A model generated the notes under the pieces. It did no database searches and was not told the DNA's origin. It saw only the letters and a list, made by a program, of their open reading frames with translations. Below are positions 105 to 7,309 of a stretch of DNA of 7,690 nt, piece after piece. The stretch is from a virus (lineage: Duplodnaviria; Heunggongvirae; Uroviricota; Caudoviricetes), in IMG/VR virus record IMGVR_UViG_2597490227_000004; one strand, written 5' to 3'. Numbering within the stretch: the stretch's first letter is position 1; every line of letters starts with the position of its first letter. The translations under genes and the position numbers were made by a program.

Positions 105-1292
105 CTATGCTGTTTTGATATCTACGATAATCCAGTCTTTACCACGATCATCATTGTATCGGTCGGTCATTTTTCTGGATTTATGGCCTAACAACTTTTG
201 CGTATCCAGACCCTGTTCCCGATATAACCGTTCTGACAGAGATCGCTGCTCATGAAATGTGGGCGCAGTTCCTTGCTCCCATTTTATGCCACATTTTTCC
301 CGGGCCTTTTTAAAAGCCGTTGTCAGAGTATTCGCAGAAACCTGGTCTCCTCTGTTTGCTTGAGAGGTAGTGTGACGGTAATGGACCAGATATTTACTAA
401 CAACAGCATCCCTGCACTGAGATATAACTTCACGAAGGGTAATATTCAGAGCATCGCATTTCAGGTTAAGCGGAATAGCAANNNNNNNNNNNNNNNNNNN
501 NNNNNNNNNNNNNNNNNNNNNNNNNNNNNNNNNNNNNNNNNNNNNNNNNNNNNNNTGCAACATGTCGTCCCATATATCAGAGAATTTCAAATTGCAGATA
601 TCGCCTAAACGTTGTCCAGTAACAAGAGCAAGTAGCATGCCGCATTTTAAATAGGGCTGCCGTCTGCTTACGCTGTCAAATATTGCCTGCCATTCGGGCA
701 GTGACAATCTTTGGCGGTTTACTCGATTTCGCGGTTGTTTTGTTGCCTGCGCTGGGTTAAATCCTGGCGGAACATGTCCTGCGTGTTGTGCTTCTTTGAA
801 GACGTCGATCAACACCATTCTCACGACTTGCGCCATCCTGTTATGACCTTCAGCCTTTACAGCATCAATTATTTCGGCAATATCAAGTGCGGTAATATCC
901 TTGAGGTGTTGCATTCCACAATGCTCACGGAAAAGACGAATGGGTTTGCCTTTTTGCCGATAGGAGTTGGGTCTTAGTTCATTATGTTGCAGCCTGTCCT
1001 CTTGGATAGAAATATATTTATCAAGCCATTCTGTCACCGTAATGTCTGAGCGCCTGCCTTTCATTCTTTCCAGACGCTCATTGACGCTTAATATTTGTCT
1101 GGTACGTTGTTCAGCAATAATGGTATTTGCTTCAGTAGCAACTTGTTTTGCTTCATTCTCATCAGTTCCTAAGCTATGAAAACGACCGGATAGTGGATGT
1201 TTGTATTGCCAATATACCTTTCCGGTTCGCTTATCTAATTTGCAATATAAATTGGGTATAGAGATTTTGTGAGATCGGGGTCTAGCAGCCAT
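105..1292 (-). CDS. int: Phage integrase, lambda-family tyrosine recombinase (395 aa; internal N-run 482-555)
   Basis: N-terminus MAARPRSHKISIPNLY... aligns by eye with lambda Int MGRRRSHERRDLPPNLY...; the C-terminal region contains HEQRSLSERLY and LLGHKSRKMTDRYNDDRG, matching lambda Int HELRSLSARLY and LLGHKSDTMASQYRDDRG. Stop TAG at 105-107. Confidence 0.9.
   Translation of the reverse strand: MAARPRSHKISIPNLYCKLDKRTGKVYWQYKHPLSGRFHSLGTDENEAKQVATEANTIIAEQRTRQILSVNERLERMKGRRSDITVTEWLDKYISIQEDRLQHNELRPNSYRQKGKPIRLFREHCGMQHLKDITALDIAEIIDAVKAEGHNRMAQVVRMVLIDVFKEAQHAGHVPPGFNPAQATKQPRNRVNRQRLSLPEWQAIFDSVSRRQPYLKCGMLLALVTGQRLGDICNLKFSDIWDDMLXXXXXXXXXXXXXXXXXXXXXXXXXXAIPLNLKCDALNITLREVISQCRDAVVSKYLVHYRHTTSQANRGDQVSANTLTTAFKKAREKCGIKWEQGTAPTFHEQRSLSERLYREQGLDTQKLLGHKSRKMTDRYNDDRGKDWIIVDIKTA
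482..555. other. Run of 74 N (unresolved or masked sequence) inside int
   Basis: Seen in sequence. Confidence 1.
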
Positions 1293-1645
1293 CAGCGANN
1301 NNNNNNNNNNNNNNNNNNNNNNNNNNNNNNNNNNNNNNNNNNNNNNNNNNNNNNNNNNNNNNNNNNNNNNNNNNNNNNNNNNNNNNNNNNNNNNNNNNNN
1401 NNNNNNNNNNNNNNNNNNNNNNNNNNNNNNNNNNNNNNNNNNNNNNNNNNNNNNNNNNNNNNNNNNNNNNNNNNNNNNNNNNNNNNNNNACGGGAATTTC
1501 GGTCAATCATCCAGTAGCGACCAACTTTTATAGCGGGTGGGGCCATCATTTTCCCTTGCGCGTATTTTTTCAGAACTCGCTCACTTGGTGCTAAGTCCCC
1601 AAATTCTTCTTTAGCCCAGTCCTGTAAAGTGATTAGTCGAGACAT
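1292..1645 (-). CDS. xis: Excisionase (Xis-type); only the N-terminal 52 codons (1490-1645) are resolved, the rest lies in an N-run
   Basis: ATG at 1645 preceded by AAGAGGAGG RBS. The resolved N-terminus MSRLITLQDWAKEEFGDLAPSERVLKKYAQGKMMAPPAIKVGRYWMIDRNSR looks like a phage excisionase. If the N-run preserves length, the frame ends in TGA overlapping the int ATG (TGATG at 1290-1294). The true length is unknown. Confidence 0.6.
   Translation of the reverse strand: MSRLITLQDWAKEEFGDLAPSERVLKKYAQGKMMAPPAIKVGRYWMIDRNSRXXXXXXXXXXXXXXXXXXXXXXXXXXXXXXXXXXXXXXXXXXXXXXXXXXXXXXXXXXXXXXXXR
1299..1489. other. Run of 191 N (unresolved or masked sequence) covering the xis 3' portion and the int 5' leader
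   Basis: Seen in sequence. Confidence 1.
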
Positions 1646-1784
1646 TTGTCCTCCTCTTAGCTGCTGAGGGAGTTTGTGACCGATATATCTGACATGATAT
1701 TAAGCTCATGGCAGGTACATCTCTTGACTGGTCATAGAGATAAATTTAATGCTGAGAAATGCAGTATTGAATTTATCAATTTTT

Positions 1785-2024
1785 CTATTTCCTGCGCATG
1801 TCACGTAACTTCTTAATGTGTTCTGCCGTTTCGATCTCTTCTGCTATCCGATCTGCATCAGCTTTATTCACAGGTTCAAAGTCATGATTAAAGCGGAACA
1901 TGCTGGCGATACATGTTCTGCCTTTTCGGATGTAGTGAACTTTGTTGTGGGTAGAACGCAGGATTTTGCAGGGAGTGCCGTGGTGGTCGACGTACCAGGT
2001 GTTAGGGTCAATCACTCTGAACAT
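1785..2024 (-). CDS. Hypothetical phage protein (79 aa), basic C-terminus
   Basis: Intact ORF co-oriented with the operon, AAGG 8 nt upstream of ATG at 2024. The start overlaps the upstream gene's end by 17 nt. I recognise no family with confidence. Confidence 0.5.
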   Translation of the reverse strand: MFRVIDPNTWYVDHHGTPCKILRSTHNKVHYIRKGRTCIASMFRFNHDFEPVNKADADRIAEEIETAEHIKKLRDMRRK

Positions 2025-2334
2025 TCTTGACCTTGTGTTGTGCGGATTGATATTCAGTGCTGATATTCACCTTTATAGCGAACACCTTTACCGGTTTATC
2101 GCCAAAGTGCGGATGTGTGATTGTCTTCACTTCATATCCGTCATACGGAACATCAATTCTGCGACTGGAATCGTCGCGCTTCGGATATCCCTTTGTGATA
2201 ATCAGGCGGTCATATTCCCGGAACATAATTCGCTTATTCCAGTAGTCATTACACAAGCGATACTCTTCCGTTTTCTCTCCGCGAATCATGGCATCGAAGT
2301 ATTCACTTTTAACAGCAAGTTGCAGGTTAGCCAT
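2008..2334 (-). CDS. ASCH-domain (PUA-like fold) protein, about 108 aa
   Basis: Translation contains IRGEKTEEYR, matching the ASCH hallmark GxKxxExR. ATG at 2332-2334 overlaps the TGA stop of the upstream TraR-like gene (TGATG), indicating translational coupling. Confidence 0.65.
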   Translation of the reverse strand: MANLQLAVKSEYFDAMIRGEKTEEYRLCNDYWNKRIMFREYDRLIITKGYPKRDDSSRRIDVPYDGYEVKTITHPHFGDKPVKVFAIKVNISTEYQSAQHKVKNVQSD

Positions 2335-2555
2335 CACTTAATCCCCCTTTGTTTGCGGATAAGCTCCAGATCTTGCTGGCAACTGGCGCAAGTCCGACAA
2401 CCCTGAACGGCCAGGCGTCTTCGTTCATCTATCGGATCGCCACACTCACAACAATGAGTGGCAGATACAGCCAGGTAGTTCAGGCGGCGCATTTTTATTG
2501 CTGTGTTGCGCTGTAATTCTTCTATTTCTGATGCTGAATCAATGATGTCTGCCAT
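2334..2555 (-). CDS. DksA/TraR-family C4-type zinc-finger protein (73 aa)
   Basis: Four-cysteine motif CxxC-x14-CxxC (CCECGDPIDERRRLAVQGCRTC) in a 73-aa protein, the size and arrangement typical of TraR-like proteins in lambdoid early regions. Confidence 0.75.
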   Translation of the reverse strand: MADIIDSASEIEELQRNTAIKMRRLNYLAVSATHCCECGDPIDERRRLAVQGCRTCASCQQDLELIRKQRGIK

Positions 2556-6225: not shown

Positions 6226-6295
6226 ACGGATAGTCCTGGTATTGTTCCATCACATCTTGAGGATGCTCTTCGAACTCTTCAAATTCTTCTTCCAT
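6209..6295 (-). CDS. orf28: orf28-like acidic micro-protein (28 aa; MEEEFEEFEEHPQDVMEQYQDYPYDYDY)
   Basis: Hand translation from ATG 6293-6295 with AAGGTG RBS 5 nt upstream. It overlaps the ral start by 17 nt, the same arrangement as lambda orf28. Confidence 0.5.
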   Translation of the reverse strand: MEEEFEEFEEHPQDVMEQYQDYPYDYDY

Positions 6296-6438
6296 ATATC
6301 ACCTTAAATAGTGGATTGCGGTAGTAAAGATTGTGCCTGTCTTTTAACCACATCAGGCTCGGTGGTTCTCGTGTACCCCTACAACGAGAAATCGGATAAA
6401 CTCTATTCACCCCTACAGAGAGCAAAAGAGAAACGCCG

Positions 6439-7020
6439 ATGAACAACTCATGGTGGCAGGAACTAATGCATTTTTTCCTGCAAGGAATGACACTTAAACA
6501 GTTGATTCATATGCTAATCATCCTGATCATATTGATTATTGTTATGCCGGTAAGCGTAAAAGAATGGATAAACCTGCATAATCCAGAAATCCTTCCTCAT
6601 TACTGGATGTATTACATCCTGTTGTTTTGCGTTAGCTATGTGCTTAACGGCGTTGTTAATTCCGCTTATCACGCTGTGACTGAAAGAATTGAGGTATTCG
6701 CTGCTCAGAAGCGCAAATCTAAAGAAGAAAAATATGTGCAAGATTTGTTTGATTCGTTAACTCTTGGAGAAAGAGCGTATTTGGCATTCGCTGTAGCCGC
6801 TAATAACCAGCTACAAACGGAAAAGGGCGCTCATGAATCAATTTCATTGCTCAAAAAAGGACTCCTCGTTCGAAGGCCTCCTGCTGTTGGATATCCTGAT
6901 ACCGACCGTTTCGTTATCCCTGAAAGCTATAGACATGAGTGCTACATTAGGTTTGCCGGGAAGGCAGACAGCCTTATGGATGAACTTATCGCTCAGGATA
7001 AGCATGGCAAAAACAAGTAA
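6439..7020 (+). CDS. sieB: Superinfection exclusion protein B (SieB), membrane protein, 193 aa
   Basis: The only convincing plus-strand gene. It has a hydrophobic N-terminal region (LIHMLIILIILIIVMPVSV, YWMYYILLFCVSYVLNGVV) and matches lambda/P22 SieB by recall. It is convergent with N. Confidence 0.8.
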   Translation: MNNSWWQELMHFFLQGMTLKQLIHMLIILIILIIVMPVSVKEWINLHNPEILPHYWMYYILLFCVSYVLNGVVNSAYHAVTERIEVFAAQKRKSKEEKYVQDLFDSLTLGERAYLAFAVAANNQLQTEKGAHESISLLKKGLLVRRPPAVGYPDTDRFVIPESYRHECYIRFAGKADSLMDELIAQDKHGKNK

Positions 7021-7036
7021 TTAGCAAATGAATTTA

Positions 7037-7309
7037 TCATCTCGCCGTCAGTTGTTTTGATTTCCGGTAGCCTGCCGCGTAAAGAGCTACGTTCGGAAGA
7101 CAAGTTGAACCTTCATATTTTCTGGTCAACGTTGTCAGAGTTATCACTTCTGCTCTCATTGCTGGTTTGAGCTTGCATTGCAAGACCACTCGTGAAGGGG
7201 TTGGCCTGTGTAGCTTGTCGGAGCTGATCGCCTCCTGACTTTGCAGATTTGCGCGACGAGCTCTACGGCGAGAAGCTGCGGTGCCTTTAAATTCTGTTTT
7301 TCTGGACAT
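7037..7309 (-). CDS. N: N-type transcription antiterminator (90 aa from ATG 7307-7309), not lambda N
   Basis: GGGAGG RBS 4 nt upstream of ATG 7309. Arginine-rich motif GTAASRRRARRANLQ near the N-terminus, as in N proteins. The C-terminus CLPNVALYAAGYRKSKQLTAR matches H-19B/933W-type N by recall. The ORF-track start at 7381 is an upstream extension. Confidence 0.8.
   Translation of the reverse strand: MSRKTEFKGTAASRRRARRANLQSQEAISSDKLHRPTPSRVVLQCKLKPAMRAEVITLTTLTRKYEGSTCLPNVALYAAGYRKSKQLTAR

Follow-up and report, generated by a model that had tools for sequence, protein, structure and literature searches.

The 7,690-nucleotide stretch of viral DNA analysed here (IMG/VR record IMGVR_UViG_2597490227_000004, Caudoviricetes; the window) runs from an integration end with int and xis, through a set of genes resembling those of phage lambda, to an antiterminator gene N. 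Which phages do these parts resemble, and where are they joined? A first-pass annotation made from the sequence alone had read the window as a mosaic prophage with a lambda core. Our comparisons indicate that it is very probably the left arm of a lambdoid temperate phage that resembles phage 21 and belongs to the species Jouyvirus ev207. The arm is put together from five modules and extends from the P' arm of attP, beside icd, across int-xis and the entire pL operon to N, nutL and pL/oL. Identified by its sequence, it is the integration-to-antiterminator arm of an already sequenced and common Escherichia coli lambdoid prophage (ev207/PhiR63_2 type). The mosaic is real, ordinary and already known, and nothing in the window is new.

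In a megablast search of 50,697 phage records, 527 of which matched some part of the window, the readable bases were 100% identical to Escherichia phage PhiR63_2 (PV340574) and 99.9% identical to ev207 (NC_049949). Both phages have the same genes and the same seams as the window, including a 4-bp deletion in the orf61 homologue, and no difference was detectable besides the window's two runs of the letter N, whose lengths do not match. Taxonomy records give ev207 as the type of the species Jouyvirus ev207 and place phage 21 in the same genus. The species criterion of the International Committee on Taxonomy of Viruses is a genome-wide nucleotide identity of at least 95%, and our value for ev207 was obtained across the 7.4 kb of readable window, one part of the genome. 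The first-pass annotation had held that uniform identity to a single known phage would speak against a mosaic. Such identity does exist, but since PhiR63_2 and ev207 carry the same mosaic, it is no valid test of mosaicism and shows only that the sequence was known.

At least 80% of the window is held at one place by 287 of the 5,426 complete E. coli genomes, many of them at 100% (e.g., IHE3034 and APEC O18). The matching DNA of IHE3034 begins 10 bases past the end of the icd coding sequence, and the DNA that matches the window start follows an icd 3' fragment in both phage 21 and ev207. With regard to described relatives, the LF82 prophage Perceval is close to ev207 (bioRxiv 10.1101/2022.10.28.514194), and NC-SV of strain NC101 is an icd-integrated lambdoid prophage (PMC12803456). 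The small RNA svsR of NC-SV (PMC12803456) was considered as a candidate for the window and rejected, as it sits at the cI 3' end, outside the window. A literature search on ev207, Jouyvirus and PhiR63_2 returned passing mentions only. In NZ_CP005930, NZ_CP045206 and NZ_CP178648 (some avian pathogenic strains), the region is ~2.45 kb longer, with an IS66-family transposase gene, and otherwise identical; this would suggest that the prophage arm is sometimes interrupted by an insertion sequence.

The module structure emerged from blastn comparisons with classical lambdoid phages. Phage 21 (OL657228), the classical icd-integrating lambdoid phage, matched window positions 1-6319 collinearly at 97-99.6% identity with one diverged patch (1797-1869), and lambda (NC_001416) matched 2344-6418. 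The Shiga toxin (Stx) 2 phage VT2-Sakai (AP000422/NC_000902) matched 2044-2333, 2344-6041, and 7037-7690, phage 933W matched 2044-2333, 2344-5983, and 7037-7102, and Salmonella phage P22 matched 6045-7100. On these alignments, the window consists of (A) the phage 21 att-int-xis region with a DUF4222 gene, (B) an ASCH-like gene, (C) a pan-lambdoid block from a TraR-like gene to orf28 that includes the Red genes, (D) a P22-type sieB, and (E) the immunity-linked N, nutL, and oL of VT2-Sakai. Each module was found in different combinations in other lambdoid phages. The seams in the window coincide with gene boundaries or short conserved sequences, in keeping with the classical modular picture of these phages: they were located at an overlapping stop/start (2334-2337), around the ribosome-binding site and start of orf28, in the 20-40 bp before sieB, and in the 3' 66 bp of N. 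Exchange of modules by recombination among lambdoid phages, co-infecting or resident, should leave such a pattern when only functional joints survive. The map, the identities, and the seam positions are direct results, and recombination as their origin is proposed from knowledge of lambda, 21, and P22.

The integration end holds the following features; all substantial genes of the window but one (sieB) lie on the minus strand.

15-37, plus strand: terminator, a G+C-rich hairpin with a run of T after it, immediately past the 3' end of the phage-borne icd (terminator scan)
53-95, plus strand: three direct repeats YYTTCCCCAAAA (repeat family D1), phage-21-type Int arm-binding sites (P1P2P3 of attP)
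105-1292, minus strand: int, phage-21-type tyrosine integrase; bases 482-555 are given as N
1282-1645, minus strand: xis, excisionase (78 amino acids in relatives); bases 1299-1489 are given as N, a run that does not preserve length
1785-2024, minus strand: DUF4222 gene (Pfam DUF4222, E=3.6e-19)

The record of phage 21 lists, just ahead of int, an icd 3' pseudogene, a terminator at the equivalent place (L004 3014-3044, corresponding to window 14-44), and three arm-type sites. These are annotated there as attP subsites with the same consensus as the window repeats, which places the repeats among the arm-type sites, and the icd 3' end is the attachment site of phage 21. The readable int DNA was 98.5-99.6% identical to phage 21, and the 52 readable residues of Xis were 100% identical to phage 21 Xis. 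The intact Int of PhiR63_2 matches Pfam Arm-DNA-bind_1 and Phage_integrase and shares only 35% identity with lambda Int; the intact copy of Xis matches Pfam Exc and shows weak similarity to lambda Xis, being barely alignable. In their readable bases, int and xis thus belong to the phage-21-type (icd) recombination module and are distinct from those of lambda, as the first-pass annotation had supposed in assigning them to another lineage.

A total of 265 bases in the window are given as N, in one run of 74 inside int and one of 191 inside xis. PhiR63_2, ev207, and phage 21 have 29 and 64 bases at these places. The first run preserves the int frame (+45 bases) and the second breaks the xis frame (+127 bases). 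Given this mismatch with the relatives, the run lengths look arbitrary (masking or gap filling).

Within the DUF4222 gene, the patch at 1797-1869 holds 13 of the 35 mismatches to phage 21 found in the readable part of 1-2700. Segment 1-2025 is common to several Jouyviruses, and 1795-2025 stands alone in ev243 and PhiR34_1. Between xis and the DUF4222 gene, we also observed an A+T-rich inverted repeat (1739-1777; 16 pairs, loop of 7). It overlaps a plus-strand open reading frame (ORF) of 46 codons (1676-1816), which is annotated as a hypothetical protein in PhiR63_2 and has no Pfam match.

The left seam separates the first two of the genes below.

2008-2337, minus strand: ASCH-like gene (weak Pfam ASCH match, E=0.068; named ASCH domain protein by NCBI)
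2334-2555, minus strand: TraR/DksA C4 zinc-finger protein of 73 amino acids (Pfam zf-dskA_traR, E=6.7e-9)
2657-2931, minus strand: orf61/ZapA-like gene, frameshifted (alignment, indel list, and tblastn matches in two frames)

The ASCH-like module (2044-2333) appears as a separate unit with 94.5% identity in 933W, VT2-Sakai, CUS-3, and Sf11. Its counterparts in VT2-Sakai (H0074) and 933W (L0064) lie ~2.4 kb from the TraR-like gene, with EaA-/Ea22-like genes between. When the window is compared with lambda and the Stx phages, the seam falls at 2333-2394, on the boundary of the ASCH-like and TraR-like genes, where stop and start overlap as AAGTGATG (2334-2337). Over its last ~50 bases (2344-2390), the TraR-like gene is of the phage 21 type and only ~78% identical to lambda. 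As a whole, the TraR-like protein is 100% identical to phage 21 gp38 and 90.4% identical to a lambda ORF, and it is conserved in 21, VT2-Sakai, and 933W. The block in common with lambda begins with the TraR-like ORF. In the lambda record, an intact 73-amino-acid TraR/DksA ORF stands unannotated between ea22 and orf61 (NC_001416 30392-30613; L003 3393-3614), which is probably why the first-pass annotation called this gene foreign.

To the right of the seam, the block that begins with the TraR-like gene continues with the following features.

2942-3133, minus strand: orf63 (DUF1382; Pfam E=9e-29; 88.9% identity to lambda orf63)
3106-3288, minus strand: orf60a (DUF1317; Pfam E=8.5e-39; 98.3% identity to lambda)
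3285-3965, minus strand: exo, Red-alpha exonuclease (Pfam YqaJ; 98.7% identity to lambda Exo)
3962-4747, minus strand: bet, Red-beta single-strand annealing protein (Pfam RecT; 99.6% identity to lambda Bet)
4753-5049, minus strand: gam, 98-amino-acid form (Pfam Gam, E=1e-63; 94 of 98 residues equal the C-terminal 98 of lambda Gam)
5125-5268, minus strand: kil (Pfam Lambda_Kil; 97.9% identity to lambda Kil)
5237-5401, minus strand: cIII (Pfam Lambda_CIII; 98.1% identity to lambda CIII)
5356-5414, minus strand: cIII mRNA thermoregulator (Rfam RF01804 Lambda_thermo; 88.5 bits, gathering score 50; E=3.6e-21)
5474-5842, minus strand: ea10 (DUF2528; Pfam E=1.8e-47; 100% identity to lambda Ea10)
5869-5890, minus strand: intrinsic-terminator hairpin between ral and ea10 (terminator scan; phage 21 annotates one at the homologous place)
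6025-6225, minus strand: ral, restriction alleviation (Pfam Ral, E=1.7e-48; 98.5% identity to lambda Ral)
6209-6295, minus strand: orf28 (100% identity to lambda orf28)

Local blastn against lambda (27000-38500) gave one alignment over window 2344-6418, with 97.2% identity and three small indels, and a further match of 70 bases at the extreme right end of the window. The genes orf63, orf60a, exo, bet, gam, kil, cIII, ea10, ral, and orf28 have the order, lengths, and overlaps of the lambda pL-operon/Red block, and these ten proteins are 89-100% identical to their lambda counterparts. This bears out the close tracking of lambda that the first-pass annotation had described for 2942-6300, but not the extent that it gave. 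The block is ~600 bp longer on the left, where it includes the orf61 homologue, a 29-codon ORF, and the 73-amino-acid TraR-like gene, and ~120 bp longer on the right; the expected drop in lambda identity outside 2942-6300 does not occur there. The proposed replacement of lambda ea8.5 and ea22 by a cassette at 1785-2657 holds for the left part, which is not lambda-like, whereas 2334-2657 is present in lambda together with the TraR-like ORF. A left junction at 2750-2950 was not found: that zone has just a 1-bp and a 4-bp indel, which break the orf61 homologue, and the actual seam lies 400-600 bp further left.

Closeness of the block to lambda does not make lambda its source. From 2344 on, identity was 97.4% for lambda, 97.2% for both phage 21 and VT2-Sakai, and 96.8% for 933W, and lambda was rejected as the specific donor of a block that is equidistant from four phages. 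The nearest reference shifts locally (phage 21 only at 2346-2388, lambda at 2597-2690, and VT2-Sakai at 3344-3643), and the mismatches are over-dispersed relative to random placement (permutation, p=0.002 for VT2-Sakai and p=0.003 for 933W). Clustered mismatches and alternating affinities are what repeated homologous exchange in a shared gene pool would give.

Two genes of the block differ from their longer forms elsewhere. The orf61/ZapA-like gene has lost 4 bp between 2782 and 2783, a deletion absent from lambda, 21, VT2-Sakai, and 933W, and its product is cut to 60 amino acids, compared with 93 in relatives (VT2-Sakai H0081, 933W L0070). The Prokaryotic Genome Annotation Pipeline marks the IHE3034 copy as 'frameshifted'. 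Lambda's own orf61 also departs from the 93-amino-acid form, through another indel (1 bp, within a run of A), and it seems from these sequences that the gene has been broken repeatedly in lambdoid phages. In gam, a 1-bp insertion at 5063, also present in 933W, severs the 40-codon N-terminal extension of the annotated 138-amino-acid Gam of lambda, so that the 98-amino-acid form is the only open form of Gam in the window. An Rfam search of the whole window (E<=0.1) returned the cIII thermoregulator only, with no small RNA and no other structured RNA.

The right edge of the shared block depends on the phage compared: it was placed at 5983 for 933W, 6041 for VT2-Sakai, 6305-6319 (orf28 start region) for phage 21, and 6402-6418 for lambda, the last being 21-37 bases ahead of the sieB start codon. 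In the alignment, the orf28 start region (CCATATATCACCT on the plus strand) is a boundary sequence common to lambda, 21, VT2-Sakai, and P22. Beyond it lies the only substantial gene listed on the plus strand.

6439-7020, plus strand: sieB, P22-type superinfection exclusion gene (Pfam SieB, E=2.5e-22)

SieB is of the P22 type, with 82% amino-acid identity to P22 SieB, whereas its comparison with lambda SieB was not significant (E=0.61). At the DNA level, identity to P22 was 94-98% over 6200-6650 and in the first half of sieB, and 70-88% in the 3' half. Positions 6334-7103 were 94.7% identical to the sieB region of Lambda_4B5-type Jouyviruses. On these matches, the P22-type sieB module is taken to span about 6334-7036, enclosed by right seams at 6402-6418 and 7037-7102. 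The right-hand range foreseen by the first-pass annotation (6300-7040) takes in the lambda seam; there are, however, two seams, and the sieB module between them had not been singled out. Among phages, sieB and N occur apart from one another.

The last module holds N and its upstream control region.

7037-7309, minus strand: N antiterminator of 90 amino acids, VT2-Sakai allele (Pfam N_peptide PF25694, E=1.5e-32)
7407-7453, minus strand: nutL, with boxA GCTCTTTAA at ~7444-7452, hairpin 1 at 7426-7438, and hairpin 2 (UGGCU-GAAA-AGCCA) at 7408-7421
7499-7574, minus strand: pL (-35 TTGATC at 7527-7522, -10 TACTAT at 7504-7499) and three oL operators (transfer from the VT2-Sakai annotation and reading of the sequence)

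Positions 7037-7690 were 94.3% identical to VT2-Sakai DNA, covering N, nutL, and pL with its operators, and N itself was 98.9% identical to VT2-Sakai N. By its N_peptide match, its arginine-rich motif SRRRARRA, and a nut site behind pL, it belongs to the lambdoid N family; a tblastn search with lambda N found nothing in the window at E<=1e-3. The label 'H-19B/933W-like' in the first-pass annotation is right for the distant lineage and wrong for the allele. The N proteins of 933W and H-19B have 127 amino acids; tblastn identity to 933W N was 41%, and in a multiple alignment the window N was 56-57% identical to both with ~37 residues missing. The likeness is limited to the two ends of the protein, ~45 residues at the N-terminus, with the arginine-rich motif among them, and the final ~25. 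The final 66 bp of N (7037-7102; 22 codons) act as a hinge in the map: they are 92-97% identical across the otherwise unrelated N alleles of VT2-Sakai, 933W, VT1-Sakai, mEp213, Lambda_4B5, and BP-4795, they recur in many other N alleles and partly in P22, and they coincide with module ends, as the overlap of the sieB-side and immunity-side modules.

The nutL site was placed by reading the sequence and by transfer of the VT2-Sakai nutL annotation. In PhiR63_2 and VT2-Sakai, nutL and nutR (the latter at L001 9930-10000) both have boxA followed by two hairpins, which are kept via compensatory changes (GTCGA/TCGAC vs. GGAC/GTCC and GGC/GCC vs. CGC/GCG) with the GAAA loop unchanged. Support for the hairpins comes from this comparison of two sequences, and the nutL region folded by itself gave no significant result (z=-1.0). 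The GAAA of hairpin 2 is a plain GNRA-type tetraloop, compared with a pentaloop in lambda and a hexaloop in phage 21. Considering the short N of 90 amino acids and the two conserved hairpins after boxA, the VT2-Sakai-type N/nut pair might use a recognition mode outside the lambda, P22, and phage 21 paradigms, although we regard this as a speculative and rather unlikely prospect. A scan for sigma-70 promoters found fewer sites than in shuffled sequence and was uninformative, so pL was placed by homology instead. The leader from the pL start to boxA (7426-7500) is 88% identical to phage 21 and diverges after boxA. Beyond the window, PhiR63_2 is 98.4% identical to VT2-Sakai in cI-cro and 93% in N-nutL-oL, with different cargo genes between oL and cI. 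This suggests that N, nut, and the immunity region travel together, as functional dependence predicts.

Taken phage by phage, the comparison is as follows. Phage 21 shares with the window the arm-type sites, int, xis, the DUF4222, ASCH-like, and TraR-like genes, the Red genes, ral, and a similar pL leader and boxA. It differs in having no sieB, in carrying its own N, boxB, and immunity region directly after ral, in an orf61 homologue without the 4-bp deletion, and in the patch at 1797-1869. Lambda resembles the window from the TraR-like ORF through orf28 in order, lengths, and overlaps, and in the cIII thermoregulator RNA. However, lambda has different att, int, and xis, and carries ea8.5 and ea22 in place of the DUF4222 and ASCH-like genes; its sieB allele is unrelated, and its N, nutL, and immunity region differ as well. 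VT2-Sakai is alike in N and the N-nutL-pL/oL region, in the Red block (97%), and in the ASCH-like gene, while both VT2-Sakai and 933W integrate at wrbA with unrelated int and xis, have the ~2.4 kb of extra genes, are without ral and sieB, and carry stx. P22 has the same sieB type in its ral-sieB-gene 24 region and the same convergent arrangement with the antiterminator gene; in P22 the 3' half of sieB is more diverged, and the antiterminator gp24 shares only the C-terminal hinge.

If the modules work as their homologues do, transcription would start at pL. The arginine-rich N-terminus of N would bind nutL RNA, and RNA polymerase would then read through terminators such as the hairpin at 5869-5890. 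Read-through would carry expression into ral, ea10, cIII, kil, gam, bet, exo, and the small nin-left-type ORFs, reaching xis and int last. Int would recombine at icd with the help of the arm-type sites, and sieB, expressed on the opposite strand from the prophage, would exclude other phages. The mosaic itself would have arisen by recombination among lambdoid phages.

How well do other explanations account for the same arm? A lambda-derived core at 2942-6300, to which foreign int/xis, a cassette at 1785-2657, and an H-19B/933W N had been added by recombination, was the version of the first-pass annotation. Its general picture of a conserved block flanked by int/xis and N modules of other lineages is retained here; what fails are its specifics, among them a block particular to lambda. 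The 97.2% identity, the 89-100% identical proteins, and a right seam inside the predicted range would all fit such a core, but the homology spans 2344-6418 and includes 2334-2657, the core is as close to 21, VT2-Sakai, and 933W, phage 21 over 1-6319 is the better parent-like reference, and N has diverged from that of H-19B and is of the VT2-Sakai allele. We therefore consider this version very improbable. It is slightly less improbable that the window copy is a decaying, non-inducible prophage remnant, given the orf61/ZapA-like frameshift, the unreadable parts of int and xis that could hide lesions, and the IS66-family element within the region in some E. coli genomes. Yet the identical sequence, including the 4-bp deletion, is present in PhiR63_2 and ev207, both deposited as complete phage genomes, and every other gene of the arm is intact. 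An assembly artefact, in which a chimeric contig was joined over the N runs or elsewhere, can hardly be credited at all. The two runs do differ in length from the relatives and the second breaks the xis frame, but on either side of each run the window is collinear with the same relatives at 99-100% identity. None of the seams coincides with an N run, and two phages sequenced independently, as well as 287 complete genomes, have the same seams.

The left arm of a five-module, phage-21-like temperate phage thus remains the best explanation. Nonetheless, several points weigh against it and call for caution. The 265 N bases leave the integrity of int and xis in the window copy unreadable, and the orf61/ZapA-like gene is frameshifted. 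Integrated prophage and phage DNA are not separable from the window alone; icd-like sequence lies to the left of base 1 in both forms. All functions given here are predicted by homology, from knowledge of lambda, 21, and P22, and the direction and age of each exchange cannot be derived from pairwise identities.

Our results present the window as textbook lambdoid modular mosaicism in a prophage type that is common in extra-intestinal pathogenic E. coli (IHE3034, APEC O18), and it matters little beyond correct annotation. For that purpose, the right reference is phage 21, the best single classical match, rather than lambda, whose reference record is without an annotation for the conserved TraR/DksA-like ORF (30392-30613). 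With regard to the family, the conserved 3' end of N and the orf28 start region mark the points at which immunity and exclusion cassettes are swapped.

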